DNA of 64,000 nucleotides. Origin: Rickettsiales bacterium (GTDB taxonomy: Bacteria; Pseudomonadota; Alphaproteobacteria; Rickettsiales; UBA3002). The DNA is taken from assembly GCA_022763105.1 (NCBI GenBank), contig JALEGK010000020.1, positions 492 through 64,491 of the forward strand, in the 5' to 3' direction. Position numbers and translations under genes: made by a program. Below are positions 3,023-23,925 of this stretch, piece by piece (the first letter of the stretch is position 1; each line of letters starts with the position of its first letter). The notes below the pieces were generated by a model. It saw only the letters and a list, made by a program, of their open reading frames with translations. It was not told the origin of the DNA and ran no database searches.

Positions 3023-3023
3023 G

Positions 3024-4130
3024 CTAGTACACGACCACGCTACGGATGCTCTCACCTTCCTGCATGAGATCAAATGCTTTGTTGATGTCATCTAACGGCA
3101 TGGTGTGGGTGATGAGTGAATCGATATCGATTTTACCATCCATATACCAATCGACGATTTTGGGCACATCGGTTCGGCCTCTGGCACCACCGAATGCAGA
3201 GCCGCGCCAGACGCGACCGGTGACGAGCTGGAACGGACGGGTGCTGATTTCTTTGCCGGCACCCGCGACGCCGATGATAATGCTTTCGCCCCAACCTTTG
3301 TGGCAGCATTCGAGCGCTTGGCGCATCAGGTCGGTATTGCCGACACATTCAAAGCTATAGTCGGCCCCGCCATCGGTGAGGTCTAAAATGGCTTCGACGA
3401 CTTGCGGCGTTTCTTTTGGGTTGATGAAATCAGTCATGCCGAATTTGCGGGCGATCTCGACTTTATCGGGGTTGATGTCGATGCCGATGATTTTATCGGC
3501 TCCTACCATTTTTGCGCCCTGTATAACGTTCAGGCCAATGCCGCCCAGTCCAAATACGACGACATTTGAACCCGGCTCGACTTTGGCATCGAATACGACA
3601 GCGCCGACGCCAGTGGTGACACCGCAGCCGATATAGCATGATTTATCAAACGGTGCGTCTTTGCGGATTTTGGCAAGTGCAATCTCTGGCAGCACCGTGA
3701 AGTTTGAGAAGGTCGAGCAGCCCATATAATGCAGGATAGGTTCGCCATTAAGCGAGAAGCGGCTAGAGCCGTCTGGCATCACACCTTGACCTTGCGTCGA
3801 ACGGATCGATTGGCAGAGGTTGGTTTTTGGGTTGAGGCAGAAATTACATTCACGGCATTCTGGGGTGTAGAGTGGAATGACATGGTCACCGACCTCTACG
3901 GAGGTAACGCCCGCACCAATCTCAACGACTACACCTGCCCCCTCATGCCCTAAAATGGCAGGGAATGCTCCTTCTGGGTCTTCACCGCTGAGGGTGAATG
4001 CGTCAGTATGGCACACGCCGGTTGCCTTGATTTCGACTAACACTTCTCCGGCTTTTGGGCCTTCTAGATCAACGGTTTCGATAGAGAGTGGTGCTCCGGC
4101 TTTGGTGGCAATAGCAGCGCGGGTTTTCAT
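3024..4130 (-). CDS. adhC: S-(hydroxymethyl)glutathione dehydrogenase / class III alcohol dehydrogenase
   Basis: 368 aa from ATG 4130, preceded by GGAGG (complement of 4136-4140). [25 protein letters not shown], and GLGGIG Rossmann motif. Confidence 0.92.
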
Positions 4131-4410: not shown

Positions 4411-7400
4411 ATGACTACACTCACCTCCGGAAATGACATCCAAGATTCTTCTGCTGAAACTGACCCGCTAGATATCACTGCTGATGCAGGCGATGATAGC
4501 GTGGTTGCTGGCTCTGGCGATGACCGCCTGCTAGGTAGTGAAGGTAACGACACTTTGCTAGGTGGCGAAGGCAGCGACACCATCTTTGGTAATGACGGTT
4601 CTGACGCATCAGGTTCTGATGATGACGTGCTTTATGGTGGTAACGGCAATGACTCTGTAGCTGGTGACGGTGGTGCAGACATCATTTACGGTGGTGACGG
4701 TATTGTAGATACAGATGATGGTGATGATACGCTTCGCGGCGGTACCGGCAATGACTCGATTCTGGGTAACGCAGGTGATGATGAGATTACCGGTAATAAC
4801 GGTGCTGACACCATTTATGGTGGTGCTGGTAACAACCTGATCTATGGTGGTAACGACGCTGACGGTGCAGGCGATGGTAGCGACCTAATCTATGGTGGTA
4901 CCGGAACGGACACTGTATATGGTGGTGAAGGTGATGACACCATTTTCGGTGGTGGCGGTCCAACCGCTCCAACCGATACGAACGATCAGCTATATGGTGG
5001 TGCTGGTAATGATGCGATTTACGGTAACGGTGGTGCTGACATCATTGATGGTGGTGCTGGTAACGACACGATCTATGGTGGTATTGGTGCGGATACCCTG
5101 ACTGGTGGTGCTGGTAACGATACCTTCTTCTTCTTTGATGGTGACACCACAGAAAACAAGGTGATTACGGATTTCGATGTGGATGAGGATTCGATCGGTA
5201 TTACCTCTAGCACGATTACAAGCACGAGCCAGATTGTGGTTTCTGAGGAAGCTAGCTCTGCACTTGCAGCCCCTGGCGATGTAACTATTACCATTGGTGG
5301 CATTACGCTAACATTGAATGGCGTTACTACGAGTCAGTTTAACGCGGTATTCGGCAGTAATCCTGGCAATCTATTTGGCTTCAACACTCCAGGTACGACG
5401 CCAACTGGCGGTACCAATACCGGCGGTTCTGGTTCTGATACCACGTCTGGCGGCGACGACACCACCTCTGGTGGCGGCGGCGGTGGTGGCGGCGGTGGTG
5501 GCGGCGGAGGTTCTACCTCTGTAACCCGTACCTTCACTGCAACGGCTGGTGAGACCCTAACCGGTGGTAGCGGTGCTGATTTCTTTGATGGCACGGCTGC
5601 AAATATTCAGGCAACTGACGTAGTTAACGGTGGTAGCGGTGCTGACATCGTGCGTTTGTATGGTGGTGGTAACTTTGATATCTCTGGTGTTACGTTAAAC
5701 TCCATCTCTGCTGTTCGTGAATCTGATGATGCTGCGGTGACGATTACTGCTGGTACCTTCAACGGTGATGTTGTTGGTGGTGGTGCTGCTGACACCTTTG
5801 TGTATGCACTCAGCGAACTAAGTAACTCTGATCTTATCACCGGTGGTGGTGGTACCGATACGCTGAACATTACCGGTGGTGGTACGATTGATCTGGGTAC
5901 GGCAGGAAGTAACGTATCTGGCGTTGAGTTGCTAACACTTGGTGCTGCAACGACCCTGACCGCAGGTGATGATACCTACACGATTACCGGTTCTGCTGGT
6001 AACGATCAATTCAACTACACCGCAGCTCGTATGACCTCTGCAGATAGCATTGATGGTAACGGTGGTGTTGATACTTTAAACATCACGGATGCTGGTTCTG
6101 CGATCGACACAACCAACGTGACCGATGTTGACAATATTAACCTGTCTAGCGCGGGCAACAACACGATCACTGCCGCGGATGACACTTACTCTCTAACGGG
6201 TGGTACCGCGAATGATCTGGTCAATGTTGCGGGTTCTGCACTTGATGGCGATGTGACCATCGACGGTAACGGTGGTACCGATACGGTGAACATTACCGGT
6301 GGTGGCGCGACTGTAGATGTGACCAATGTTGGTGACATTGATGCGATTACGTTGGCAGCGGCTACGACCATTACTGCAGGTCTAGATGATAACATTACCA
6401 TTACGGGTTCTACCGGTAATGACGAGTTAAACTACACTGCAGCGAATCTAACCTCTGCTGATACCATTGACGGTAACGGTGGTACCGATACGATTGATGT
6501 AACCACAGTAGGTGTGGCTATCAACACGACCAACGTGTCTGACGTTGATAATCTAAATCTTGCGGATGGTGGTGCAAACACCGTGACGGTTGGTACCAAC
6601 AACTTCAATGTGACCGGTGGTGATAATGATGACACGCTGATTTATGCGGCTGGTGCACTGACCTCTGATGACACCATTGACGGTGGTGCGCATGCAGGTT
6701 CGGATACGATTAGCGTAACCGGTGCCGGTTCGATTGACCTAACCAATGTAACCAACATCGAAGCATTGGATCTGACTGCAATGACCGGTGGTATTAACCT
6801 AACGGTGAACGCATCTGACTTTGCGATTGCTGGTACGGCTAATGACGATACCATCACCTATGATGATGCGAACTTCTCTGGCGCTGACTCTGTGGATGCG
6901 AATGCAGGCGATGATACATTGATTATCAATGATGCTAACAATGGTGGCTTTACACTGGATGCAACCAACCTTGATGGTACCAACACCCGTGAGATCGAAA
7001 ATATCGAACTTGGCGGTACTGGTGGTGCTAACATCACGCTGGTGGATGCGTTTGTTTCTACCGCGACAGGTACGAATGTAGATCTGAGCCTGGGTAGCCA
7101 AAACATCAACCTAGATACCGATGGTCTAACTGGTGCGAACACCGTGGATATTACTGGTGCAGGTTCAAACGTGATCACATTGACGGGTACGAATAACGCC
7201 AATATCAACCTGCTAGACGGGTTTAGCAGTAAAGTGATCTTGGCGAACGGTTCTAACGATGAAGTGACCGATGGCAATGGTAACGTGACTGTTACTGCCG
7301 ATGATGATGCGCGTTTGGATACCAACGATTCTATCGATGGTGGAACCGGAACGGATGTGCTTCAGCTAACCGATAGCGGCACGAACGGTATTTCCATTAC

Positions 7401-10400
7401 TGGTGCTGTGTTTGATGGTACGGGCGTAGACAGCTTCGAGCGTATCGAATTGTCTGGTACCGCTGGTCAAACCAACAATGTTGAGCTGGTCGATGGTTAT
7501 GTCACCACGACCACCAGTAACTCTGTGACTGTTGATCTTGGTGGTGCACTAGACATCGATGAGCTTGTGACCGTTGGTGTTACCGGTAGCGTTGTGCTTA
7601 GCGATGACACTGATGGTACCGTAGACGCCGCTACGGGTAACGGTAACAATGCCAACATTCAGGTGTTGGCTGGTGATGTGCTGAACGTAACGCTTGGCTC
7701 TGGTGCGAACACCATTGCTGGTAACGATCAGGATGATACCTTCACTGTTCAAGATAACCAGTTGGCTGCTACTGACAGCATCTCTGGTTCGACCGAAAGC
7801 ACCGAAGATACGCTTGTGATTACTGGTGCTAACGGTAACGTCGACTTCAGCGTAGCAACCAATGTTTCTGGCTTTGAAGTGATTGAGATTACCGCTGACC
7901 GTATTACAGGTACAGATACATTGCTTATCACTGATGCGTTGGTTGACTCTGCAACCGGTGATAGCATTGATATCCGCACCTCAGGTGCAGGTACCGTTTT
8001 TGACCTTGATACCACCAATGTAAACTCTGCTCGCTCTGTTGTGATTGATACGGGCGATGCCGTGGAGTTGGCAGATGGTGCAGGTAACAAAGTGTTCGCT
8101 GGTGCAGGTAACGATGTTGATATTACTGGTGGTTCTGGTGATGACACGATTTCTGTGGCTGATGCTGATCTGACAACCGATGATTCCATTGATGGTGGAA
8201 CCGGCGATGACGATACCTTGGCTATCACCGGTGCTGCGGTTACCTTGACTGCGGGTGAGCAAACCAATGTAGACGGCATTGAAGTGCTTTCATTTGATGC
8301 TGGTACTCATGTGATCAATGTTCAGGATGCTACGGTAACGGATGCTTCTGCGGATGCGCATGGCGCTGCATTGAACGGCCAGCAGGTTGTCTCTATCCTA
8401 GGTAATGGCTCGACCCTGAATCTGGATGCGAGCAACGTAACCACTGCAGGTAACTATGTTAAAGTCGGTGAAACCAGCGATACGGTGAATCTGACAGCAG
8501 CGGCAACGAATATCTTTACCGCAACCGGTAACAACAATATTACTGGTAATGCAGCGGCTGGCGATACCATTTACTCTGCTAATGGTTTGCTAGATACCAA
8601 CGATACCATTGATGCAGGTGCATCAACGGGTGATGCGTTGATCTTCTTAGATGCTACCACGATTGATACGGGTGACATTGCTAACGTAGGCGGCTTCGAG
8701 CAGTTATTCTTTGCGGCTGATGGTAACGCTGTCACGTTGACCAGCGCGTTTGTCGATGACACGAACGGCTTGAACGTTTCGGCTGTGACTAACACGCATG
8801 ATATCGATCTGGATCTGACCGAGCTGGCGACCGAGATCGTTGGTACGGTAACCGAGCTGGTGACCTTAACCGATGATGCAGGTGATATTGGCGAAGTGAC
8901 CATGCTTGGTGGTGCTTCTGAAGTGAACATTCTTCGTATCGAAGATATGACTCAGAACGTCAGTGTTGCCGGTGGTGATGCTGATGACATCTATGTCTTT
9001 GATGCCATCACGCAACTAGATACCAATGATGCGATTACCGGTGGTAACGGTACCGATGCTGCGGTCTTCACCGCAACTGGCGTGACGATGGACCTAAATG
9101 CAGACTTTAACGCCTTTACTGGTGCTGGTTTTGAAAACCTGATCTTCACCGGAACCGGTGCGAATGTGACGGCTGTCGATAACAGCGCTGAGAATGCCGC
9201 GGGCCTAACGCTTGTTGCTGCTGAGGGTATTGATAGTGTTACCACTGGCGCAAACGCGGTTGGCTTACTATCGTTGGATACGACCGATGGTGTGATTCTG
9301 GCGAATGGTAGTGATAACAATGTGACCATTGCTGATCTGAACACCACATTGGCGGGTGGCGATGATACCACCACGGGTGGCGCATCTCGCATTCTGGATA
9401 TTAGCGGTTATGTGGGTACGAAAGTAACCTCAGGTACTGGTGATGACACGATTATCGGTGGTACCGGTGCTGATACCATTATCGCAGGTGCGGCAGCAGC
9501 CGGTACTGGCCACGAACGCTTCTATGGTGGTGCGGGTAACGATGTGATTACTCTGATCACTGGTGCTGCGGATGGTAACGCAACCATTCAAGGTGATGCA
9601 GGTGACGATACTATTACGGCGCTAGATGAGCACATCAATAACACGGTGACCATCGGTGGTGGTGCTGATAGTGATGTGCTTGCAATCACTGATGATCTGG
9701 ATGCTCAGTCAGCAGACTGGGGTGAAGTGACCGGTTTTGAGCGTATCGAGCTAAACAACGCTACCAACACTCAGCTGATTTTGGGTGCGGGTGATGCAGC
9801 AGCCGTTTCTGGTGCGATCAATACACTTGTGATCGACTCTAACGGTAATGCAGTGTCTAGCTTACGTATTGCTGATGGCGGCGCAACCGTTGCTGGCGGT
9901 GTGAATGCAACGCTAGATGGTGCAGTAACCAACAACTTTACAGTGACTGATGGTAGTACGCTGGATATTGCTTCTACCGGTGGTAACGACACCATTACTG
10001 GTTCGGGTGCATTCGCTGATACTTGGACGATTCTGGAAGCGAATCTGGCAGCAACTGACCAGCTAAACTTCGGTGACGGTACCGATAAACTGATCATCGA
10101 TGAGAGCGGTGGTAACGGTATTACCTTTGCCGATGCTCTGGGTACGGTTGCTGGTAATCTGGAAGAGATTGAAGTGGGTACGATTACCGCTGGTCAAACC
10201 TCTACCTTCACCTTCGAGACCAATGCAGATACCTTTATCGGTGCTGGTAACAGCATCATTCTGGATATCAATGGTCAGGAAGTGAGCGGCTTTACGGTTG
10301 ATACTTCTAACCTGTCTTCTGATCGTACGGTCTACCTATCGGATAACACCGGTCAGGCTGATGTGACGCTGGATAACACTGCGGATAACGCCTCTGGTTC

Positions 10401-10920
10401 TCGCGTTGCTATCTCTGATGGTACCGATGGTAACATCACTGGTAGCGCAGAAGATGATACCATTATCGGTGGTGACGGTGACGACACCATGGTTGGTGGC
10501 GACGGTGATGATAGCTTGATCGGTGGTGCCGGTCAGGATTCCTTCACCGGTGGTAACGGTAACGATGAGTATGTTGTGAATGATCTGTCTGAGATTATTG
10601 TGACTGACTTCAAAGTAGCGGGTGCAGATAAGATTACCTTCTCTGACGCTGTCTTTGATTTCAACGCAGCATTCCCAGGTCTGGCGTTCACCGCGTCTGA
10701 TATCACGGCTGTAACCACGTTCGATAGTGGTGCACAAGACTTCACGGATAACATCGCACCAGGTAGTGTTCCGGTGACGACCAACTTCCTATTCGATGTA
10801 GCGGATAAAGAAGTTTGGTACGATGCAACGCCTCTAGTGGCGGGTGGTGAAGTGTTAGTTGTGACCATCGAGAATGGTTCTTACAGCTTCTCTGCTGCTG
10901 ACTTCGCGGCTGTTGCATAA
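4411..10920 (+). CDS. Giant acidic RTX-type (hemolysin-type Ca-binding repeat) repeat protein; putative T1SS-secreted adhesin/surface protein
   Basis: 2169 aa. There is no N-terminal signal peptide. GGxGxD nonapeptide runs occur at the N-terminus (LLGSEGNDTLLGGEGSDTIFG...) and near the C-terminus (IIGGDGDDTMVGGDGDDSLIGGAGQDSFTGGNGND). The core is built of roughly 70-aa units with recurring IDGNGGTDT and TNV(T/S)D(V/I)DN(I/L)NL motifs. A 14-Gly tract is present. RBS AAGGA lies upstream of ATG 4411. Confidence 0.85.
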   Translation: MTTLTSGNDIQDSSAETDPLDITADAGDDSVVAGSGDDRLLGSEGNDTLLGGEGSDTIFGNDGSDASGSDDDVLYGGNGNDSVAGDGGADIIYGGDGIVDTDDGDDTLRGGTGNDSILGNAGDDEITGNNGADTIYGGAGNNLIYGGNDADGAGDGSDLIYGGTGTDTVYGGEGDDTIFGGGGPTAPTDTNDQLYGGAGNDAIYGNGGADIIDGGAGNDTIYGGIGADTLTGGAGNDTFFFFDGDTTENKVITDFDVDEDSIGITSSTITSTSQIVVSEEASSALAAPGDVTITIGGITLTLNGVTTSQFNAVFGSNPGNLFGFNTPGTTPTGGTNTGGSGSDTTSGGDDTTSGGGGGGGGGGGGGGSTSVTRTFTATAGETLTGGSGADFFDGTAANIQATDVVNGGSGADIVRLYGGGNFDISGVTLNSISAVRESDDAAVTITAGTFNGDVVGGGAADTFVYALSELSNSDLITGGGGTDTLNITGGGTIDLGTAGSNVSGVELLTLGAATTLTAGDDTYTITGSAGNDQFNYTAARMTSADSIDGNGGVDTLNITDAGSAIDTTNVTDVDNINLSSAGNNTITAADDTYSLTGGTANDLVNVAGSALDGDVTIDGNGGTDTVNITGGGATVDVTNVGDIDAITLAAATTITAGLDDNITITGSTGNDELNYTAANLTSADTIDGNGGTDTIDVTTVGVAINTTNVSDVDNLNLADGGANTVTVGTNNFNVTGGDNDDTLIYAAGALTSDDTIDGGAHAGSDTISVTGAGSIDLTNVTNIEALDLTAMTGGINLTVNASDFAIAGTANDDTITYDDANFSGADSVDANAGDDTLIINDANNGGFTLDATNLDGTNTREIENIELGGTGGANITLVDAFVSTATGTNVDLSLGSQNINLDTDGLTGANTVDITGAGSNVITLTGTNNANINLLDGFSSKVILANGSNDEVTDGNGNVTVTADDDARLDTNDSIDGGTGTDVLQLTDSGTNGISITGAVFDGTGVDSFERIELSGTAGQTNNVELVDGYVTTTTSNSVTVDLGGALDIDELVTVGVTGSVVLSDDTDGTVDAATGNGNNANIQVLAGDVLNVTLGSGANTIAGNDQDDTFTVQDNQLAATDSISGSTESTEDTLVITGANGNVDFSVATNVSGFEVIEITADRITGTDTLLITDALVDSATGDSIDIRTSGAGTVFDLDTTNVNSARSVVIDTGDAVELADGAGNKVFAGAGNDVDITGGSGDDTISVADADLTTDDSIDGGTGDDDTLAITGAAVTLTAGEQTNVDGIEVLSFDAGTHVINVQDATVTDASADAHGAALNGQQVVSILGNGSTLNLDASNVTTAGNYVKVGETSDTVNLTAAATNIFTATGNNNITGNAAAGDTIYSANGLLDTNDTIDAGASTGDALIFLDATTIDTGDIANVGGFEQLFFAADGNAVTLTSAFVDDTNGLNVSAVTNTHDIDLDLTELATEIVGTVTELVTLTDDAGDIGEVTMLGGASEVNILRIEDMTQNVSVAGGDADDIYVFDAITQLDTNDAITGGNGTDAAVFTATGVTMDLNADFNAFTGAGFENLIFTGTGANVTAVDNSAENAAGLTLVAAEGIDSVTTGANAVGLLSLDTTDGVILANGSDNNVTIADLNTTLAGGDDTTTGGASRILDISGYVGTKVTSGTGDDTIIGGTGADTIIAGAAAAGTGHERFYGGAGNDVITLITGAADGNATIQGDAGDDTITALDEHINNTVTIGGGADSDVLAITDDLDAQSADWGEVTGFERIELNNATNTQLILGAGDAAAVSGAINTLVIDSNGNAVSSLRIADGGATVAGGVNATLDGAVTNNFTVTDGSTLDIASTGGNDTITGSGAFADTWTILEANLAATDQLNFGDGTDKLIIDESGGNGITFADALGTVAGNLEEIEVGTITAGQTSTFTFETNADTFIGAGNSIILDINGQEVSGFTVDTSNLSSDRTVYLSDNTGQADVTLDNTADNASGSRVAISDGTDGNITGSAEDDTIIGGDGDDTMVGGDGDDSLIGGAGQDSFTGGNGNDEYVVNDLSEIIVTDFKVAGADKITFSDAVFDFNAAFPGLAFTASDITAVTTFDSGAQDFTDNIAPGSVPVTTNFLFDVADKEVWYDATPLVAGGEVLVVTIENGSYSFSAADFAAVA

Positions 10921-14711: not shown

Positions 14712-14804
14712 TAATGCAAATAAACTGGTAAGCTTGTACCGCGGTACGCCCCTACCTTGCGAAAACCGTTTGATGGGTTCGCAGAATGCTCGAAAATCGA
14801 AGAT

Positions 14805-14818
14805 TGGCGCGCCCGGCA
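14805..14818. repeat. 14-bp remnant of the tRNA-Arg 3'-end att core (TGGCGCGCCCGGCA)
   Basis: Identical to the first 14 nt of the 47-bp repeat at 14919 and 23849. It lies 100 bp to the left of the complete distal repeat. Confidence 0.6.
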
Positions 14819-14918: not shown

Positions 14919-14965
14919 TGGCGCGCCCGGCAGGACTCGAACCTGCAACCTTCAGATTAGAAGTC
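14919..14965. repeat. Distal att direct repeat (displaced 3' part of tRNA-Arg)
   Basis: 47/47 identity with 23849-23895 (tggcgcgcccggcaggactcgaacctgcaaccttcagattagaagtc). Confidence 0.95.
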
Positions 14966-15076
14966 TAACGCTCGTAATGTATATCAAAGTATCTCTGTGT
15001 ATGCAATAGCATATATTTCATTGAGTTATTGGCCTTTATCGGATATGAGGGTATTTAGAAATATCTAAAAATATCG

Positions 15077-15107
15077 CCCAAGAAGGGCACGAAAAGGGCA
15101 CGATAAA
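15077..15107 (+). promoter_or_regulatory. Paired GGGCACG motifs (11-bp phasing) just upstream of int; candidate integrase arm-type / autoregulatory sites
   Basis: cccaagaaGGGCACGaaaaGGGCACGataaa. A near-identical roughly 30-bp copy sits at 23777-23806 in the same orientation. This copy ends 7 nt before the int ATG. Confidence 0.5.
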
Positions 15108-15113
15108 GTAGCG

Positions 15114-16295
15114 ATGGAAGCTAAGAATCGATTTAATTTTACTAAGAAAGCTATCCAAAAATTACCGGTTGCTGATAAGGGAAAACGCCCTGCTTACTTT
15201 GACACGCAAATGAAAAACCTATGCGTGACGGTAACAGATAAGGGCAGCAAAATCTTTTGGGTTCGTAAAGTGATAGAAGGTCGTTCACGAAGAGTGAGAT
15301 TAGGAGCGTTCCCTGACTTATCAATAGAAAACGCCAGAGAGATGGCGTTAGAAGTAAAAAATCAAATTGCGAAGGGAGGAAATCCCTTTGAGCATCGCCA
15401 ACGCTTCAAACTAGAGCCCACTTTTTCTCAAATGTTTGCACAATACTTGGAGAAGCATGCGAAGCCGTATAAGAAGCCTTCGTCACTACGTGCTGATGAA
15501 TATAATTTTCATAAGTATATTGATAAAGATATAGGTCACATCAAGCTGTCGGCTGTCACAGGTGATGACATTCAGCGTTTACACAGTAAGACAGCAAAGA
15601 ACCATGGAAAGTACGTTGCAAACCGGATTTTGGCTTTAGTTCGTATCGTGTTCTCAAAAGCGATTGAGTGGAATATTACCGATAAAAAGAATCCAGCATC
15701 ACACATTAAGCCATTCAAAGAACACTCTCGTGATCGATTCCTTCAAAAAGATGAACTTCCACGCTTTATAGAAGCATTGGAAGCCGAGCCTAACCGAGAT
15801 ATTAGAGATTATGTATGGGTAAGCCTTTTAACAGGCGCAAGGCGTGGGAATGTTCAGGCAATGCGTTGGAAAGATATTAGTTTAGACCGCATGGAATGGC
15901 GTATTGAAGATACGAAAAACAATGAGCCGCAGGTGATACCACTTGTGCCCTTCTTGTGCGATTTACTCAGTCACCGCAAAAAACAAAATAAGAATGGTTC
16001 ACCTTTCGTATTTGCAAGTCGTGGAAAGACAGGTCATTTAACCGAGCCAAAGTCTGGTTGGAAGCGTATATTGAAGCGTGCAAATATTGATAATTTTCGT
16101 ATTCATGACTTGCGCCGGACGTCTGGTAGTTATCAGGCTGCACTAGGTACAAGTTTACCGATTATAGGAAAATCTTTAGGGCATAAAAGTTTGGCAGCAA
16201 CGCAGATATATTCTCGGCTCGATATTGACCCTGTTCGTGATTCTTTAACTCAAACTGCTGATGTTATATTGGCCTTAGGTAAGAAAAATGCCTAG
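15114..16295 (+). CDS. int: Tyrosine recombinase, P4/CP4-57-type integrase with N-terminal arm-binding (DUF4102-like) domain
   Basis: 393 aa. The N-terminus (FTKKAIQKLP..YFDTQMKNLCVTVTDKGSKIFWVR..LGAFPDLSIENAREMA) matches the arm-binding domain pattern. Catalytic motifs: TGARRGN, HDLRRT, LGHKSLAATQIYSR. Confidence 0.9.
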   Translation: MEAKNRFNFTKKAIQKLPVADKGKRPAYFDTQMKNLCVTVTDKGSKIFWVRKVIEGRSRRVRLGAFPDLSIENAREMALEVKNQIAKGGNPFEHRQRFKLEPTFSQMFAQYLEKHAKPYKKPSSLRADEYNFHKYIDKDIGHIKLSAVTGDDIQRLHSKTAKNHGKYVANRILALVRIVFSKAIEWNITDKKNPASHIKPFKEHSRDRFLQKDELPRFIEALEAEPNRDIRDYVWVSLLTGARRGNVQAMRWKDISLDRMEWRIEDTKNNEPQVIPLVPFLCDLLSHRKKQNKNGSPFVFASRGKTGHLTEPKSGWKRILKRANIDNFRIHDLRRTSGSYQAALGTSLPIIGKSLGHKSLAATQIYSRLDIDPVRDSLTQTADVILALGKKNA

Positions 16296-17100
16296 CTCAT
16301 CACTTAAATATAACTTTTCTGGTGTTCATGCAGTCTTTCCTGAATTTACATTTGATGAAGCCGCTTCAGTAGAAGAGGATCTTGTTGGAGTGTTAGGCGG
16401 AGGGCTGCCAGAAACCACTCACTGCTTTATCAGAAATTTTGTAAACAAATACCGAGAGCGGACCTTTGTTTATTACGAACGTCCTGCGCGAGATAGTGTA
16501 GACAGAATGTTACAAGAGGCAGAAAGCGCTCTTGATAATATTTATCAGGTTTTCGGTGAATCAAATCGGTTCATAGTAGATCAAGAGATGCTAGATAAAA
16601 ACGGTCAACCAAGCAGGGCACTGGATTATATTAGCTCTAAGTTAATTGCAGCGGCATTTAGTTCTGAAGATGGCCCTGCTATCCCACTAGCCTCTTACAA
16701 TGCTGCACTTCATCAGCTCGTATATTCTGCTGATGCAATTAAGCAAGCCGTTGCAAGTGCTCGTCAAAGCCTAAGCAAGCAAGAGTACGAAGAAGCACTG
16801 GTTGGCCCTGTAAATAAAGCAGATGTAAGAGAGATTGCGATTGCAGAGTTTTGCGGGGTTTGGAAGTATGCTTTTAATAGGTCAATTAGCGCTCATGTGG
16901 ACGGCGATTTCAAGAAGTGTGTAGAGGTTCTGTTAAAGGCAGTCGAATGGAGCGACAACAGAGCAACTTACAGCATTGCATTACCTAACGAAGAAAGTGG
17001 GATTAGAAAAACACTGGTAGCGGCTCGTGACTACTTTGATCGATTTGGGCCGAGCAAAGACTATACATTAGCCTGTTGGGATTTTGAGGAGATTTCATAA
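16288..17100 (+). CDS. Hypothetical protein (island-borne)
   Basis: 270 aa. The ATG overlaps the int stop by 8 nt. No recognisable motifs, TM or signal peptide. Confidence 0.55.
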   Translation: MPSSSLKYNFSGVHAVFPEFTFDEAASVEEDLVGVLGGGLPETTHCFIRNFVNKYRERTFVYYERPARDSVDRMLQEAESALDNIYQVFGESNRFIVDQEMLDKNGQPSRALDYISSKLIAAAFSSEDGPAIPLASYNAALHQLVYSADAIKQAVASARQSLSKQEYEEALVGPVNKADVREIAIAEFCGVWKYAFNRSISAHVDGDFKKCVEVLLKAVEWSDNRATYSIALPNEESGIRKTLVAARDYFDRFGPSKDYTLACWDFEEIS

Positions 17101-17201
17101 CAGGAAAAAATCCATCCGAAAAAATGAATTATTCTTCCTCTAAAAGATTTTGCCGTATCTGACAGTATCTGCTTGTAACTAAAAAGCAGAAAGGCCGATA
17201 A

Positions 17202-17399
17202 ATGTCAGACCTACTTACCCCCGAAGAAACTGCCGAATTGTTAGGCATTAGCGTGAATACCTTGCGTATGTGGCGTTGTGCCAAACGCTATGATTTACCA
17301 TACGTTAAGGTTGGGCGATTAGTGCGCTACAGAGAGAAAGAGATACAGGATTTTATTCTAAGAAATCAGAAGCAGGGCCAGAGTTTAGAGGCTTTGTAA
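17202..17399 (+). CDS. AlpA/excisionase-family helix-turn-helix protein
   Basis: 65 aa. LLTPEETAELLGISVNTLRMWR...LPYVKVGRLVRYREKEIQDFI is the typical MerR-like Xis/AlpA HTH. Confidence 0.8.
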   Translation: MSDLLTPEETAELLGISVNTLRMWRCAKRYDLPYVKVGRLVRYREKEIQDFILRNQKQGQSLEAL

Positions 17400-17407
17400 T
17401 ATAAAAA

Positions 17408-17426
17408 CGCCACTACGAGAGTGGCG
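17408..17426 (+). terminator. Hairpin after the alpA-like gene (weak terminator candidate, no T-run)
   Basis: CGCCACT-acgag-AGTGGCG, 9 nt after the stop. Confidence 0.3.
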
Positions 17427-17485
17427 CTTCCAACCTTCCACAAATCACTAACAGTAAACTGCCAGTATTATCTTTAAGCTAGTCT

Positions 17486-17869
17486 ATGACGTTTCATAAG
17501 ACAAGCACCGAAGATGGCTCTGGCACACAGGAGAGCTATATCGTGAAAAAGGAAAAACTAGACTTCGAGTATATTGAAAGAACGGCCTATGCCAGCCGAC
17601 TACAAATAGTAGAACGTTGGTTGCCAGGTGGTAAATTCCATGCGCATGCTTCAGATGAGTATGTAGCCCTTAACCCCAAGCGGTCAGATAATCGCCTTGG
17701 CTCATTCAAGGTTAATATGAGCTCATTGCTCTGGGCAGACTTTGCGACTTCGGATAGTGGCAAAGGGCTCATTAGTCTTGCGGCTTATTTATTCGATTTG
17801 TCATCATATCAGGCTGCATTGCAGTTGGCACAGATGATCGGCGTGGAGGAGCTAGCATATGTCAAATAG
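17486..17869 (+). CDS. Small protein resembling the N-terminal module often fused to plasmid/phage primases
   Basis: 127 aa. LNPKRSDNRLGSFKVNMSSLLWADFATSDSGKGLISLAAYLF matches the NPxRxDxxxGSFxxN...WxDFA...GDxISL pattern. Overlaps the next gene by 11 nt. Confidence 0.6.
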   Translation: MTFHKTSTEDGSGTQESYIVKKEKLDFEYIERTAYASRLQIVERWLPGGKFHAHASDEYVALNPKRSDNRLGSFKVNMSSLLWADFATSDSGKGLISLAAYLFDLSSYQAALQLAQMIGVEELAYVK

Positions 17870-20252
17870 CTTGCCCGATGCGTTTGCTCCGTTATCTGAT
17901 GAGGAGAGGCAGCGCCCTGCACCTATGCCTCATGTGAAAGAAGAATGGGTAAGGATAGAATCTGTACCTGCTAATGAAATTGAACGCCTTAAGCCGCAAG
18001 GACATCCTGAGAAAACGCACCGATATTATGATAGGGAAGGGCGTATTGAGCAGATTATATTTCGATACGTAAATAAAGACGGTAGCAAACGATTTACTCC
18101 TTATACGTTCTGTAAGAACATCGCCACAAATGAGCGTGGGTGGCGAAAGAAAGGAGTAGAGGGGAAGCGCTCTCTATATAATCTCCCAGAACTGTTAGAG
18201 AGAGTAAGCGCGCCTGTAATTGTTACAGAAGGTGAGAAAGCAGCCGATGCCATAAAAGAGTTGGGATTAGACTATGTGGCTGTCACATCTAGTAATGGTT
18301 ATGCATCGCCAGCAAAAAGCGATTGGATGCCCCTCAAAGGTCGTCATGCCGTTATCTGGGGTGATAATGATGATGCGGGCCGTAAGTACGTCAGGTCAGT
18401 TAAGGAGCTGCTTCTTCAGGCGGGTGTATTATCCCTCTCTATTGTTGAGTATGACGATAGCTTTGCAGATAAATGGGATGCAGCTGACGCATTAGAAGAA
18501 GGGTGGAGTAAAGAGAAAGCCGAAAAGCTCTTAAAGTCTGCAAAGCGTATTTCTATTGAGACACTCTATCCAAAAGGATTTAATCGTAACGATGGTGGGG
18601 TGTTTTGGACTCCGGAAGGAGAAGACAAAGACCCTATTAAGATTTGCTCGCCACTAGATATTATCGCGCATACTCATGATGAGAATGGAGAGAACAGTGG
18701 CCTATTACTACAATGGGTATCGCCTCGTTCTAATATGCCCCACGAGTGGGCCATGCCTGTCAAATTGCTTTCTGGGGATGGTAGAGAGATACGAGAATAT
18801 CTTCTGGATCGAGGACTTGTACTGCATAACGGATCGAAGCAAAAGCAGAAGCTGTTAGAGTATTTGCAAGAGTCTCAGCCTGTACGCCAAATGACGAGTG
18901 TGTCTCGGATTGGGTGGCATAATGATTACTATGTAATGCCCGGCGGCACTTTTCCTGAATCTGAGAATCTAGTGCTTCAAACCAAGATGGATGACTATCG
19001 TGTTTATCAAAGCAAAGGATCGTTAAATGATTGGCAGTCGTATATCGCTCGATATACGGAGGGTAACTCAAGGCTTGTTTTCGCAGTTTCATGTGCATTT
19101 GCTGCACCGCTGATGAGGCTTATTGGTAATAATGATAGCGGTGGTTTTCATTTCATTGGAAATAGCTCGATCGGAAAATCCACTACATTGAAAGTAGCAG
19201 CAAGCGTATGGGGTGGTAATGATGAAAGAGATTTCATTGAGCAATGGAGAGCGACGTCAAACGCACTAGAACGTTTGGCTGAAACGCATACTGACAGCCT
19301 ATTGTTGCTTGATGAGCTGGGACAGGCAGACTCACGTGATATTGCTGATACGATTTATATGCTGGCAAATAATCAGGGCAAGAAACGTATGTCTAAGGAT
19401 GCTGCATTAAAAGACTCGTACCGTTGGCGGCTATTATTTATTTCGACTGGCGAAGTGTCGTTAGAGAGTAAAATTATTGAAGCAGGGAAACGGCTAAATG
19501 CAGGGCTTGAAGTGCGATTCATCAATATTCCAGCTGATGCTGGACAAGGTTATGGGGCGTTCGAGAAAATTCATGATGAATTTGAGCATCCAGCTGAATT
19601 TGCACGCTACCTTAATGAACGCAGCGTAAAATATTATGGTGTGCCAATCCGCGCCTTCTTAAAGCGTTTGGTAAACAATAAAGAGCCTTACTTAGAAAGC
19701 GTTGCGCAAACAATGGATGCCTTCAAGCAAGAAGTGCTACATGAAAGTTATGATGGTCAAGTGGCGAGAGCAGCAGAACGATTCGCTATGGTGGCCGCAG
19801 GGGGAGAGCTGGCAATTCGTATGGGCGTATACACGCTTGAACAAGGAGCAGCACTTGAGGCCGCAGAGCGTTGCTTCAATGATTGGATGCAGTATCGTGG
19901 TACATCTGGTCGCTTAGAAGATGCTCAGATTATCAAAGCCGTGCGTTTGTATCTGGAGAAATATTTGGATAGTCGATTTTCACTAGAAGGCGATGAAGTG
20001 AGGGGAGAGCGTGCGGGGTGGAAACAAAAGAATGTCTTAGTCGACGGCACTCCCTGTGAGGAAATTTTTTATGTTTCTAAAGAGATGTTTCGTAACGAGA
20101 TATGCAAGGGCTTTGATTATAAAAATGCCGAAGCTGTACTAATTAAAGAGGGTTTTCTTTTTCCCGATGGTGCAGGTAATGCAACGCGTAACAAAACGAT
20201 ACAAAGCGCTAAAGGAAGACGCTATTGGATTAACGGAAACATATTATCTTAG
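17859..20252 (+). CDS. Toprim-domain primase fused to a DUF927-like SF3-type helicase/NTPase
   Basis: 797 aa. Toprim: VIVTEGEKAADA ... VIWGDNDDAGRKY. Walker A: GNSSIGKST. Walker B: LLLLDELGQ. Confidence 0.85.
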   Translation: MSNSLPDAFAPLSDEERQRPAPMPHVKEEWVRIESVPANEIERLKPQGHPEKTHRYYDREGRIEQIIFRYVNKDGSKRFTPYTFCKNIATNERGWRKKGVEGKRSLYNLPELLERVSAPVIVTEGEKAADAIKELGLDYVAVTSSNGYASPAKSDWMPLKGRHAVIWGDNDDAGRKYVRSVKELLLQAGVLSLSIVEYDDSFADKWDAADALEEGWSKEKAEKLLKSAKRISIETLYPKGFNRNDGGVFWTPEGEDKDPIKICSPLDIIAHTHDENGENSGLLLQWVSPRSNMPHEWAMPVKLLSGDGREIREYLLDRGLVLHNGSKQKQKLLEYLQESQPVRQMTSVSRIGWHNDYYVMPGGTFPESENLVLQTKMDDYRVYQSKGSLNDWQSYIARYTEGNSRLVFAVSCAFAAPLMRLIGNNDSGGFHFIGNSSIGKSTTLKVAASVWGGNDERDFIEQWRATSNALERLAETHTDSLLLLDELGQADSRDIADTIYMLANNQGKKRMSKDAALKDSYRWRLLFISTGEVSLESKIIEAGKRLNAGLEVRFINIPADAGQGYGAFEKIHDEFEHPAEFARYLNERSVKYYGVPIRAFLKRLVNNKEPYLESVAQTMDAFKQEVLHESYDGQVARAAERFAMVAAGGELAIRMGVYTLEQGAALEAAERCFNDWMQYRGTSGRLEDAQIIKAVRLYLEKYLDSRFSLEGDEVRGERAGWKQKNVLVDGTPCEEIFYVSKEMFRNEICKGFDYKNAEAVLIKEGFLFPDGAGNATRNKTIQSAKGRRYWINGNILS

Positions 20253-20254
20253 GT

Positions 20255-20473
20255 TGTTCTGCCTGTTCCGATTGTTCTAACGCCATAACAGGCTGAATAT
20301 CATGAATTATATCTGCTGTTGCGCAGGAACAAGTCACTAAGATGCGATTGTTCTGTTTGTTCTCTGGAACAATGGGAACAGTGGGTGGATGGGTTTTTGT
20401 TCTTGACCCAATTTATTTAAGTCTGTGTAATTCCTTCGATTTCTGTTTGGGAACGATGAGAACAACAAGAACA
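20255..20473. promoter_or_regulatory. Iteron array: 11 perfect and 1 imperfect TGTTC/GAACA motifs, 9-bp phased, dyad-symmetric; putative island replication origin
   Basis: TGTTC at 20255, 20264, 20273, 20349, 20358 and 20398. GAACA at 20327, 20367, 20376, 20460 and 20469. GAACG at 20451. The arrangement is mirror-symmetric about roughly 20364. It starts 3 nt after the primase-helicase stop. Confidence 0.6.
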
Positions 20474-20507
20474 GGGAGTTCGACAAGCATAGGAGAGAGC
20501 TTACGCT

Positions 20508-21362
20508 ATGAGATATGAGCATCAAGACGACTGGCGTTTTAAGTTAATGCTTTTTGTCTACGAGAATTTTTCAAAGATTTTATTAACCGCCTTCAGCCTG
20601 TTTGTGGCGTATGTCGAGTTAAGTGCATTTCTCGCAAATATACCTTGGTTTAATGAAGATGTTGTGTTGATGGAGGGGGTTTCAACATCAAAGGGCGCGA
20701 TCAGTGAATATATTGTTTTGGCGATTTTATTGTTCGCGAATGTTCACTTATGGCTAAATGATGCGACACGCTCTAGAGAGATCAAGCTGTATAAAGGTCT
20801 TTTGCTATCTAGCAGTCCTGCGGAGGATAAACTAAATGTATACTTGGCGCATTTAAGTAAGCGGCGATTTAATTTTGGCCACTCGCATAGAGTTAGCATT
20901 TATAAATACGACAAAGACTTAAAGTGCTTCTTCAGAGTAGCGCGCCATTGCCAGAGAGTTGACTGGAGTGACGGTGGGCATCGGGAAAGCTATTTGAGTG
21001 ATAAAGGTATAATCAGCAAGGTTTGGAAGGATGAGGACTTTAAAATCAAGGGGCTGCCAGATAGAGAGAAAAATTTTTATGGGTACAGTATGGAATTGGA
21101 TCGTGAAGGAGTTGGGCTTCCCGATGACGTGTTAAAGAAAATGAGGATGCCTAGCCGCTCTTATTGCGGGTTTAAGGTTCACGACCCAAACGAACCCCAC
21201 AGCCTTGGAGTGATTATATTTGAAAGTACGAAGCCAAATGGGTTAAAATATCGCAGGCTAAAAAGATTCATGCATTCTTCAGAAGGTAAGTTGTTAGCCC
21301 AGTTGACAGAAAGCAGGAAGTTAACGCAGAATGACAGTGAGGTAGGTTTATGGCCGCTTTAG
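20508..21362 (+). CDS. 2-TM membrane protein with C-terminal GAF-like soluble domain; candidate toxin/effector
   Basis: 284 aa. AGGAG at 20491-20495. Hydrophobic helices: ILLTAFSLFVAYVELSAFLANI and YIVLAILLFANVHLWL. C-terminal pattern: RVSIYKYDKDLKCFFRVARH..GIISKVW..YCGFKVHDPNEPHSLGVIIFEST. Confidence 0.6.
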   Translation: MRYEHQDDWRFKLMLFVYENFSKILLTAFSLFVAYVELSAFLANIPWFNEDVVLMEGVSTSKGAISEYIVLAILLFANVHLWLNDATRSREIKLYKGLLLSSSPAEDKLNVYLAHLSKRRFNFGHSHRVSIYKYDKDLKCFFRVARHCQRVDWSDGGHRESYLSDKGIISKVWKDEDFKIKGLPDREKNFYGYSMELDREGVGLPDDVLKKMRMPSRSYCGFKVHDPNEPHSLGVIIFESTKPNGLKYRRLKRFMHSSEGKLLAQLTESRKLTQNDSEVGLWPL

Positions 21363-21838
21363 GTGACATAATTGCGTATTTGTATCACGAATATCCTCTT
21401 AAGACTGACCTCTCTAAGGCTCGGGTTAATAAGCTTATTTATTTGGCGGACTGGATCTCTGTATTAAACAGAGGGCATCAGGTTTCAGATATACAGTGGG
21501 TGTTTAATAGATATGGTCCTTATGTGGACGATATAATTGAAGCTGTGGTATGTGACGATAAGCTGCATGTGCAGTCCACAAGAAATTATTTCGGAGACTT
21601 AAAAGAGATAATTTCAGCGGATGAAGATTATATTCCTGAAACACTGAGTGATGAAGATAAAGATTACCTCAGTGATGTTATCAAAGAGACTTCAGCGATG
21701 AGTTTTAAACCCTTCATCGATTTTGTGTACTCCACATATCCTGTTAAGTCACAGCCTCGAGGTGCTTCGTTAAACTTGCCTCAGTTGGCCGATCAGTTAA
21801 AATCCCTTATTAGTCGCGCGGCTAGTTCTGTAGTCTAG
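21350..21838 (+). CDS. Panacea/DUF4065 (SocA-like) domain protein; candidate antitoxin
   Basis: 162 aa. KARVNKLIYLADWISVL..IQWVFNRYGPYVDDI fits the KLxKLLYxA...W..GPV core of the domain. Overlaps the upstream gene by 13 nt. Confidence 0.6.
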   Translation: MAALGDIIAYLYHEYPLKTDLSKARVNKLIYLADWISVLNRGHQVSDIQWVFNRYGPYVDDIIEAVVCDDKLHVQSTRNYFGDLKEIISADEDYIPETLSDEDKDYLSDVIKETSAMSFKPFIDFVYSTYPVKSQPRGASLNLPQLADQLKSLISRAASSVV

Positions 21839-21928
21839 TATTAAGCACCCCTATAAGGCGTTTGATTCTGTTTCTCTCTGCTTTTTCTAAACAGTATAAT
21901 ACAGCATTAAAACTGTTTAGGGGGAGTT

Positions 21929-22270
21929 ATGCCGATACCATATTTATTGATGGGTGCTCTAGGGCTTGGTGCTGCACTATTGCTGAAATCTGAGGCTGAT
22001 AATCAGCAGCCAGCGGCAGATGATGAGAAGTTATGGGAAGAAGAAAAGGAAAAGGTTTCGACTGCCATGGCTATAGATATAGGAACGGAAGATGGCTCAG
22101 AAACAGTAAGCGAAACAGAAAAAGATGGTGCTGTTTCCCCTTATAGGGAAAATCAAACAGTTTCTGAACCAAATGCATTACGCCGTGGTGACCGCTTTAC
22201 ATGCCCTGATACAGGACAAGAATTGCAGGTTCGTGCGGTCGGTGGTCGTGGAAGAAAAGCGGTTCACTAA
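21929..22270 (+). CDS. Small hypothetical protein with one N-terminal TM helix and an acidic tail
   Basis: 113 aa. GGGGAG RBS at 21921-21926. IPYLLMGALGLGAALLL TM helix followed by a Glu/Asp-rich region. Preceded by TATAAT flanked by an 8-bp inverted repeat. Confidence 0.5.
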   Translation: MPIPYLLMGALGLGAALLLKSEADNQQPAADDEKLWEEEKEKVSTAMAIDIGTEDGSETVSETEKDGAVSPYRENQTVSEPNALRRGDRFTCPDTGQELQVRAVGGRGRKAVH

Positions 22271-23181
22271 CTCGCCTGTGGGTGACACTCCCTATATACC
22301 TTCATTGCGTGTTCATTACTGACCTTAGTGTAAATTTGGGTGTTACTGATACTGGTATGCCCAAGCAGCTTTTGCAGAGATATGATATCTGTTCCGTTTT
22401 CCATCATGTGAGTGGCAAAGCTATGTCTAAAAGCATGCGGTGTTACCGTGTGGGCCAATCCTAGTTCTTTTCGCACTTTTACAACGATGCGTTGAAAGAC
22501 TGCCATCTGCAATCTGTCGCCATGTGCACCTATAAACAAGGGGCAGCCGCCTATGACTTGCCGAGGGCGTAAAGCAATATAGCACTCTAGTGTTTTTTGA
22601 GCGATTGGTAAGAGGTAGGCCATACGTTGGCGATTACCTTTCCCTGTTATACGGATATTTTCTTTAATCGTGCTACCACTGAGTACATCGCGGTCATTTA
22701 GCTTGAGTGCCTCTCCTATACGCATGCCTGTGCTATAGAGCAATGTGAGCAAAGCTCGATCTCGAATACCTATCCATGGTTTGCGCGAAACAAAAGTGAT
22801 AGCTTCTAAGCAATGAAGGGCTTCATCAACGGTTAGGGGGCGGGGTAGCGGCCTTTCTGCTCTGGGCAGTGGCAAGAAATGTGGTTCTGAGTTTGTGATG
22901 CCATGGCAATCTTCTAAGAAAAGATAGAATGAGCGGATTGAAGCAATCACTTTTCGCGTTGAATATGCTTCATAACCTTGAGCATGACGGTAACTAAGCC
23001 ATCTCCTAAATGACTTACGATCTAGCAACGCTAGAGACTCAAGGCTAATAGGAAGCCCTAGTTGTTGCTCGATAAAGCAAAGAAACTGTCTAGTGTCGCT
23101 TAGGTAACTGTTTGCTGTTAGAGGTGCTTTCTGTTTGCAATGAAGCAGCCATTCAGCCCATTCGTGAAGTAAATTATCCAT
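22267..23181 (-). CDS. XerC/XerD-like tyrosine recombinase (second recombinase of the island)
   Basis: 304 aa. Catalytic motifs: YSTGMRIGEAL, HAFRHSFATHMMENG, LLGHTSISNTQIYTKV. Confidence 0.85.
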   Translation of the reverse strand: MDNLLHEWAEWLLHCKQKAPLTANSYLSDTRQFLCFIEQQLGLPISLESLALLDRKSFRRWLSYRHAQGYEAYSTRKVIASIRSFYLFLEDCHGITNSEPHFLPLPRAERPLPRPLTVDEALHCLEAITFVSRKPWIGIRDRALLTLLYSTGMRIGEALKLNDRDVLSGSTIKENIRITGKGNRQRMAYLLPIAQKTLECYIALRPRQVIGGCPLFIGAHGDRLQMAVFQRIVVKVRKELGLAHTVTPHAFRHSFATHMMENGTDIISLQKLLGHTSISNTQIYTKVSNEHAMKVYRECHPQAS

Positions 23182-23743
23182 GGCTAGCCTCGACTTGAAT
23201 TTGCGGGGTGATGAGGGGTAGCCATTGATCGAGTGTGCGATTGACTACCCAGACAGATACACCGAAACGTTTGGCAATTACGCCCTTTGGGGTTTTAGCG
23301 ATATGAAGCCGGCACATGGCGCGTGACCGCAGGTGATGCAGTCTTTTTTGTATTCGTTGATGTAGATAAGTGTAGTGGCCTCGTAATCTCTCGGGGGACA
23401 CATCATGCAGCATGGCGCGTGCTGTTATGATTTCATCTATAGGGCACTTACTCTTTCTGCCTTCTCTATGGATGTTGAGAGTGATCCAGAACATACGAGA
23501 GCTTTCTGTTTTCCAGATATTCAAACGTTCAAGGCGTTCGTGATCTATGTCCTTTTGACGTTCGATACTCCGAGCTAAATCGCGCATGAGTGGCGCAGCA
23601 AGCAATGTAAGCTGCTCGGCCATGGCTCGTGACAGGTTAAGAGTAATCTCAATACGATCATTGCCTGCTGATGTGACGTTGCTTATAGAAATAGGGGATG
23701 AATGAGAGAATAAGTCTGGAATATCGGGCATTTGAGCCTCCAT
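23174..23743 (-). CDS. Hypothetical protein with C-terminal HTH; partner of the XerC/D-like recombinase
   Basis: 189 aa. Its stop overlaps the recombinase start by 8 nt. KGVIAKRFGVSVWVVNRTLDQW is HTH-like. Confidence 0.55.
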   Translation of the reverse strand: MEAQMPDIPDLFSHSSPISISNVTSAGNDRIEITLNLSRAMAEQLTLLAAPLMRDLARSIERQKDIDHERLERLNIWKTESSRMFWITLNIHREGRKSKCPIDEIITARAMLHDVSPERLRGHYTYLHQRIQKRLHHLRSRAMCRLHIAKTPKGVIAKRFGVSVWVVNRTLDQWLPLITPQIQVEASHG

Positions 23744-23776
23744 CTAACGTAGGTTAAACCAAGCGTTAGACTGCAT

Positions 23777-23806
23777 CCCAGAAGGGCACGGCAAGGGCAC
23801 GAAAAA
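23777..23806 (+). promoter_or_regulatory. Second copy of the paired GGGCACG motif (tRNA-proximal arm)
   Basis: cccagaaGGGCACGgcaaGGGCACGaaaaa. GGGCACG at 23784 and 23795 (11-bp phasing). It lies 42 bp from the att core. Confidence 0.5.
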
Positions 23807-23848
23807 TATCTCGGAGGATGACAAAAGCCATCAACCCATTGATATGTT

Positions 23849-23925
23849 TGGCGCGCCCGGCAGGACTCGAACCTGCAACCTTCAGATTAGAAGTCAGATG
23901 CTCTATCCAGTTGAGCTACGGGCGC
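23849..23925 (-). tRNA. tRNA-Arg (anticodon TCT)
   Basis: 77-nt cloverleaf. Acceptor stem GCGCCCG/CGGGCGC. D arm GCTC/GAGC. Anticodon arm TCTGA-CTTCTAA-TCTGA with one T-T mismatch. T arm GCAGG-TTCGAGT-CCTGC. CCA is encoded. Confidence 0.9.

Follow-up and report, generated by a model that had tools for sequence, protein, structure and literature searches.

A gene pair on a tRNA-Arg island of a Rickettsiales metagenome-assembled genome as a predicted member of the toxFtsL:PanA toxin-antitoxin family

What do the two overlapping genes at 20508..21838 of a 64,000-nucleotide (nt) stretch of Rickettsiales DNA (contig JALEGK010000020.1; the whole stretch is called the window here) encode? The closest described system is the toxin-antitoxin (TA) pair toxFtsL(D9):PanA of Gelidibacter mesophilus (WP_027127282.1/WP_027127283.1), validated by Ernits 2023 in PNAS (PMC10440598). 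The toxin is a protein of 281 amino acids (aa), annotated there as 'GAF; FtsL; transmembrane', and the antitoxin is a stand-alone Panacea protein. As that paper describes it, the toxin abolishes colony formation and is directly neutralized by PanA, and a liquid culture producing the toxin grows for about 1 h further, arrests and then collapses (PMC10440598). The cells filament, FtsZ is delocalized and assembly of the divisome is inhibited, and the membrane is reported to be neither depolarized nor permeabilized (PMC10440598, including supplementary information Fig. S12). In the dataset of Kurata 2022 (PMC8832971) the family corresponds to putative toxin cluster pT13/T13, with the toxin gene preceding the antitoxin gene, and was untested at that time; the term pT13/T13 appears at least 19 times in that dataset, with entries that include G. 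mesophilus and Aliidiomarina maris. The latter species also appears in our own locus survey (L042). A literature search did not find the name 'toxFtsL' beyond Ernits 2023.

Because it is homologous to toxFtsL(D9):PanA of cluster T13, the window pair can be placed, as judged by sequence comparison, in a known and validated family. The first-pass annotation of this DNA, made from the letters alone, had proposed an undescribed module whose 284-aa member was not recognized as any named toxin. Neither point survives, since the toxin family is pT13/T13 of Kurata 2022, the G. mesophilus member is described as validated in Ernits 2023, and the 284-aa protein is homologous to the toxFtsL prototype WP_027127282.1. 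The accompanying view, that the two genes form a TA module with a Panacea antitoxin, agrees with a match to PF13274 and with the validated homologous pair. In the source annotation, the toxin is a 'hypothetical protein' of a Rickettsiales metagenome-assembled genome (MAG) and its partner a 'Panacea domain-containing protein'. The parts of the pair are these:

20491..20499, + strand: Shine-Dalgarno-like purine-rich AGGAGAGAG, 8 nt before the toxin ATG, read from the sequence
20508..21362, + strand: toxin gene, 284 aa, toxFtsL (NetFlax D9 / Kurata T13) family, from the open reading frame (ORF) scan
20568..20756, + strand: two predicted transmembrane (TM) helices of the toxin, aa 21-48 and 64-83 by hydropathy scan, with AlphaFold2 (AF2) helices at 9-44 and 63-100
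20757..20885, + strand: helical linker of 44 aa between the second TM helix and the GAF domain, with AF2 helices to residue 100 and at 105-119, the shorter putative counterpart of the 'FtsL-like' coiled-coil region in the prototype
20886..21317, + strand: predicted GAF-fold domain, aa 127-270, from AF2 and Foldseek, with invariant R128, R146 and E239
21339..21342, + strand: GAGG, a Shine-Dalgarno-like motif for PanA that precedes the panA ATG by 7 nt and still lies within the toxin gene, at its 3' end
21350..21838, + strand: panA antitoxin gene, 162 aa, a stand-alone Panacea protein, from the ORF scan

The link to the prototype was made through the family. A profile search seeded with the Bacteroidota members of our survey retrieved P0280, a G. 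mesophilus protein of 281 aa (E=6e-53), which an exact look-up identified as exactly WP_027127282.1. In a direct BLASTP comparison the window toxin and this protein are 27% identical over 149 aa (E=4e-11). A leave-one-out family hidden Markov model (HMM), built without the window protein, yields 198.7 bits for the prototype, whose match covers profile positions 2-258 of 273, and 196.2 bits for the window toxin. On the G. mesophilus contig the toxin gene occupies 2380-3225 and the Panacea gene 3222-3719, in the same order and with a 4-nt overlap. The two systems are alike in having TM helices, a helical linker and a GAF domain in a toxin of closely similar length (284 aa in the window and 281 aa in G. 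mesophilus), in a stand-alone Panacea antitoxin of 162 and 165 aa, respectively, and in overlapping genes arranged toxin first. They differ in the length of the overlap, which is 13 nt in the window, in identity, which is 27% for the toxin and 34% for PanA, and in the linker, which at 44 aa is about 10 aa shorter than the 54 aa of the prototype (family median 57, range 42-182). The host differs too: the window comes from an alphaproteobacterial Rickettsiales MAG, where the pair sits on a primase-encoding tRNA-Arg island.

Against Pfam SocA_Panacea (PF13274), for which the gathering cutoff is 25.7 bits, the 162-aa protein scores 46.2 bits (E=9.8e-12), and the domain at aa 27-128 (nt 21428-21733) spans profile positions 2-108 of 113, so that the Panacea/DUF4065 core read by eye in the first-pass annotation is borne out by a profile HMM. 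It is 34% identical to G. mesophilus PanA (WP_027127283.1) over its whole length (E=4e-29), and a word-indexed search returns 879 homologues at 40-55% identity. In PADLOC-DB v2, PanA has marginal matches only (PDC-M19A, E=0.007; DarG, E=0.013).

How is the toxin built? The AF2 model, made on the family alignment, has a predicted local distance difference test (pLDDT) score of 88.6 and a predicted template modeling (pTM) score of 0.80, with the helices at 9-44 and 63-100 split by a low-confidence loop. Model and hydropathy scan agree on the two N-terminal hydrophobic helices that had been noticed at first pass. In the GAF region, pLDDT is mostly 93-98, with one ten-residue block at 80, and each of the 50 Foldseek matches listed from the PDB is to a protein with a GAF domain or a GAF fold (E about 2e-6, probability 1.0), among them 4mcw, 3ci6, 5w10 (cAMP-bound), 1ykd, 1mc0 and fRMsr 4mmn. 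The Pfam GAF profiles PF01590 and PF13185 give no match to the window toxin at E<=1, and among its relatives they match weakly in 4 and 3 of 61 members, respectively (best E=0.0015). The GAF assignment of the C-terminal part, already suspected from its residue pattern, holds at the level of the modeled fold and by structure only. Basic residues lie before the first TM helix and after the second, and the loop between the helices is acidic; by the positive-inside rule this charge distribution suggests an N-in/C-in topology. Linker and GAF domain would then be on the cytoplasmic side, within reach of PanA, which is itself taken to be cytoplasmic.

Relatives of the toxin are numerous. A phmmer search of 1.84 billion representatives found 542 with E<=1e-3, of which 69 reach E<=1e-10. 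Their length is in nearly every case 260-310 aa, and conservation is concentrated at about residues 105-275. The alignment of 61 family members has the motifs ERISvY, GRYS.NP, YP..G.IG.AW, LPDP, MKSRSY and AVIVFEST; R128, R146 and E239 are invariant in it, and every invariant residue is present in the window toxin. Nothing significant was found for the toxin in Pfam, PADLOC, NCBIfam or PHROGs, the defense models of PADLOC-DB v2 included; a word-indexed search returned only the toxin itself, and when a profile was run against the sequences of the PDB, nothing beyond coiled-coil and TM noise came up.

How general is the pairing? In the first three PanA neighborhoods, an unannotated gene of about 280-300 aa ends at the PanA start, and these three neighbors match the window toxin at 49% identity (E=2e-37), 26% (2e-14) and 20% (4e-9). 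A genome scan with the PanA alignment gave 80 loci, from Alpha-, Beta- and Gammaproteobacteria, Desulfobacterota, Campylobacterota, Actinomycetota, Bacillota, Bacteroidota, Planctomycetota, Spirochaetota, Verrucomicrobiota and Eremiobacterota, and from one Methanoregulaceae MAG. In 77 of the 80, the toxin-family HMM identifies a same-strand toxin homologue directly upstream of PanA, and in IMG/VR the toxin lies upstream of this PanA subfamily in 22 of 22 viral contigs. Together, the toxin is immediately upstream, and usually overlapping, in 99 of 102 further loci, a figure which, because the survey was seeded from the PanA alignment, shows an association of the PanA subfamily with the toxin and not the converse. 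The pairing is not a matter of chance, because homologous pairs occur in so many further loci, and the recurrent neighborhood that the first-pass annotation had named as a check is found, as surveyed from the PanA side.

The exceptions are few, and L045 and L080 are two of them. At L045 the contig ends before the toxin position, as it also does at L003, one of four contigs examined earlier. At L080 (4386-5419, a Planctomycetaceae MAG), PanA is an orphan with an ORF-free gap of 530 nt upstream, which suggests loss of the toxin. The archaeal locus from the Methanoregulaceae MAG (L077) carries a complete toxin-PanA pair, which implies either inter-domain transfer or a binning artifact. No third gene is conserved with the pair, the largest flank cluster being found in 7 of 81 loci, and such near-constant pairing with no third gene is what characterizes an autonomous two-gene module that moves horizontally. 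When the window toxin was used as a tblastn query, no match was obtained among 50,697 GenBank phage records, and one was obtained to a conjugative Vibrio harveyi plasmid.

The arrangement of the two genes is likewise a property of the family. In the window, the toxin stop codon (TAG, 21360-21362) lies beyond the panA ATG at 21350, producing the 13-nt overlap between co-directional ORFs that was described at first pass and is reproduced from the sequence; the ribosome-binding site attributed to the pair is also there, as the purine-rich element 8 nt before the first ATG. Among 87 intact pairs, 51 overlap, mostly by 1, 4 or 8 nt, and 83 either overlap or are no more than 10 nt apart. A Shine-Dalgarno-like motif is found at -15 to -4 of the PanA start, inside the toxin 3' end, in 79 of the 87. 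The translational coupling proposed for the window genes is supported by their overlap and by the internal GAGG. Many of the toxins (loci L005-L108) end in a conserved ..[KRE]-G-[FYL] tail, the DNA of which coincides with the panA Shine-Dalgarno motif (79/87). The tail may owe its conservation either to the RNA signal or to a role of the peptide itself, for instance as a PanA contact or a degron.

Other known systems resemble the window pair in part. SocAB of Caulobacter crescentus, the founding Panacea/DUF4065 system, is similar in having an antitoxin with the SocA_Panacea Pfam domain. Acting as an adaptor for ClpXP, SocA promotes the degradation of SocB, a toxin that binds DnaN. Unlike in the window, the toxin of SocAB is of an unrelated kind and the antitoxin gene comes first. 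Holin T of bacteriophage T4 combines a single TM helix with a periplasmic domain. With its antiholin RI, it shares with the window pair a membrane anchor joined to an alpha/beta domain, a small inhibiting partner and delayed lysis, but the partner is periplasmic and there is no sequence relationship (hhalign 0.2%). The membrane-disrupting PanT:PanA pairs (STEC O31 T3, Bartonella T12/D11 and Helicobacter; PMC8832971) are described as having direct Panacea neutralization and TM toxins in common with it. As reported, those toxins differ in being predicted small TM peptides without a GAF domain that depolarize or permeabilize the membrane, which the toxFtsL prototype does not (PMC8832971, PMC10440598). 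CbtA-type toxins, cited in PMC10440598, are alike in the expected block of division or morphogenesis; CbtA, however, is a small soluble binder of FtsZ and MreB, without TM helices, GAF domain or Panacea partner. Assignment to the SLATT two-TM effectors of CBASS type was considered and rejected, as a weak SLATT_6 match is found in only 1 of 61 members and the neighborhood shows neither a conserved cyclase gene nor a conserved SMODS gene.

We consider the window pair very likely to be a functional toxFtsL:PanA-type TA system (type II) with direct neutralization. The toxin would be anchored in the inner membrane by its two helices, and its linker and GAF domain would extend into the cytoplasm. 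By homology, PanA would bind the toxin directly and hold it inactive; the gene overlap and internal GAGG couple PanA translation to that of the toxin. Toxin set free would, by the same homology, block assembly of the division machinery, and the cells would form filaments and lyse after a delay, without holes in the membrane. Toxicity, direct neutralization and the division-block phenotype are attributed to the window pair by homology with its tested relative. The pair would most likely stabilize the island, as an addiction module, and/or act as phage-triggered suicide cargo.

Several points weigh against this interpretation. Identity to the tested prototype is 27%, with the pairwise BLAST alignment limited to the GAF domain, and the helical 'FtsL-like' linker is shorter than that of the prototype. 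Neither protein has a Pfam FtsL or DivIC match, although this test is uninformative; weak DivIC matches occur in 3 of 61 family members. The phenotype, as reported, was measured in E. coli for a protein of the Bacteroidota (PMC10440598), whereas the window host is a Rickettsiales MAG. A sigma-70-like promoter was looked for in 20253-20507 and not found, and no terminator was found for the pair either. The proposal that the window toxin blocks division is evenly balanced and no stronger, because identity is low, the linker is shorter and the resemblance to FtsL is not checkable by Pfam, the prototype itself being without a Pfam match.

Could the toxin act on the membrane itself? The first-pass annotation had inferred a membrane-acting effector, and a holin-like mode of action can be framed in which the released TM helices oligomerize and depolarize or permeabilize the inner membrane. 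The two TM helices would suit this, as would the membrane-disrupting activity reported for other PanT toxins (Kurata 2022, PMC8832971) and the eventual collapse of the prototype culture (PMC10440598). So would the Foldseek matches in BFVD. Most of those with E<=1e-3 are to proteins of phages, about 190-260 aa in length, and several are named as membrane or GAF-domain proteins; a few matches (E=2e-4 to 5e-3) are annotated as class III or T holins, including a 'Class III holin' at E=2.2e-4 and, more weakly, a 'T holin lysis mediator' at E=3.9e-3 (TMt 0.57). A weak SLATT_6 match in one family member (E=0.0065) can be added. But hhalign of the family profile with T4 holin T gives a probability of 0.2%, the T4 T structures 6pxe, 6px4 and 6psk are not among the 50 PDB fold matches listed, and the N-in/C-in topology deduced here differs from the single TM helix and periplasmic domain of T4 T. 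The homologue that has been studied is described as showing no early membrane damage, neither depolarization nor permeabilization, and as causing filamentation and loss of divisome assembly instead (PMC10440598). A holin-like action is for these reasons improbable, and 'membrane-acting effector' is at odds with the data on the homologue. Membership of the T4-type class III holins was also considered and rejected on the hhalign result, the two TM helices and the GAF domain placed in the cytoplasm by inference, the fold matches in BFVD being weak; a literature search did not find the periplasmic domain of holin T described as GAF-like. The phage proteins matched in BFVD belong to Gordonia phage Finkle, Klebsiella RaK2, Cronobacter GAP32, Tenacibaculum phages and a crAss-like phage; their alignments span most of the toxin.

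A different proposal adds a layer to the TA interpretation and does not exclude it: the toxFtsL:PanA family, including the island copy, could serve in abortive-infection defense, with a phage-derived or alarm molecule sensed by the GAF pocket or by Panacea and the divisome-blocking toxin released in consequence. A GAF fold with invariant R128, R146 and E239 is compatible with such a sensor, and the company kept by the pair would also be in character: an island with P4-type integrase and primase domains, 22 IMG/VR viral contigs and, as the commonest immediate neighbors, subunits of type I restriction-modification (R-M) systems (HsdR at 5-8 and HsdS at 4 of 147, with TIR_2 found twice). Most neighbors, however, are unrelated housekeeping genes, and the neighborhood has no conserved gene for a nucleotide cyclase or for another signal-generating function. 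The toxin is matched by none of the PADLOC models, and the tblastn search of GenBank phage records was empty. The main text of Ernits 2023 has phage screens for other systems and none for toxFtsL:PanA (PMC10440598). Abortive infection is for now a tentative proposal, rather doubtful on this balance, and yet better placed than a holin-like action. Least probable is that the pair is a decayed TA locus or a non-toxic membrane sensor with a Panacea partner, acting in signaling or regulation. A lack of toxicity in E. coli is reported for ten NetFlax candidates and for many of the Kurata candidates (PMC10440598, PMC8832971), and an orphan PanA does exist at L080, but a member of this family is described as both toxic and neutralized (PMC10440598), and both window genes are intact, with strong profile matches and with all family-invariant residues kept in the toxin. 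We therefore retain the TA interpretation as the best account of the window pair.

The surroundings of the pair are those of a mobile element, and its placement as island cargo directly after an iteron block, as first proposed, is confirmed by the tRNA-Arg repeats and by the TGTTC/GAACA array. The features of the island are these:

14919..23925, no strand assigned: integrative island carrying the pair, 8.9 kb, with 55-nt direct repeats at 14919-14973 and 23849-23903
15114-16295: integrase with Arm-DNA-bind_3 and Phage_integrase Pfam domains, P4-type, at the end far from the intact tRNA
17202-17399: HTH_17 protein
17859-20252: Toprim and DUF927 primase, 797 aa
20253..20480, no strand assigned: TGTTC/GAACA repeat block, in the 256-nt spacer that separates the primase gene from the pair
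22267-23181, - strand: second tyrosine recombinase, XerC/D-like (Phage_int_SAM_1), adjoining the tRNA
23849-23925, - strand: tRNA-Arg(TCT), intact, the single tRNA found by ARAGORN

The 3' half of the tRNA-Arg recurs at 14919-14973 as a copy of 55 nt with 95% identity, and the two repeats bracket the 8.9-kb element that holds the pair. GC content is 41-46% within the island and 49-52% in the flanks. With two tyrosine recombinases, the island may be composite; an ORF of 189 aa without a Pfam match precedes the second of them. The repeat block, directly downstream of the primase gene, has 6 direct-repeat families and 13 inverted pairs, in both orientations. The origin of phage P4 uses TGTTCACC iterons, which the TGTTC/GAACA array resembles, and the block probably serves both as the replication origin of the island and as the untranslated leader or promoter region of the pair.

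Other observations concern the island ends. At 14800-14818, 114 nt outside the left border, the 3' end of the tRNA-Arg is found for a third time, as a 19-nt copy that may be the scar of an earlier or tandem integration. GGGCACG(A) repeats are found inside both ends, with 2-3 copies on the left (15078-15118) and 2 on the right (23777-23806), and are candidate arm-type sites for the Arm-DNA-bind_3 integrase. A co-directional ORF of 113 aa (21929-22270) follows panA after 91 nt. Its product has a hydrophobic helix at the N-terminus and is acidic in the middle; it is without a Pfam match and is not kept beside the pair in other loci. Upstream of the island, and unrelated to the pair, a 2169-aa ORF (4411-10920) has Gly/Asp-rich repeats of GGxGxD type, as in RTX/hemolysin-type calcium-binding proteins.

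Two genes of a Rickettsiales MAG, one of them with no functional name, become in this way a named TA pair. Standard annotation pipelines miss the toxin because no Pfam, NCBIfam, PHROG or PADLOC model matches it. To the family, the survey adds the near-constant pairing of one PanA subfamily with this toxin across more than 10 bacterial phyla and one archaeal MAG, its presence on predicted viral contigs and, in several genomes, its position beside or inside type I R-M loci, context that does not appear in the available parts of Kurata 2022 and Ernits 2023. If the abortive-infection proposal were true, toxFtsL:PanA would be a defense effector aimed at cell division and spread by integrative islands, prophages and type I R-M islands. 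The member described here, borne on a compact mobile island, would be a reasonable test case for the ligand of the GAF domain and for the natural trigger of the system.

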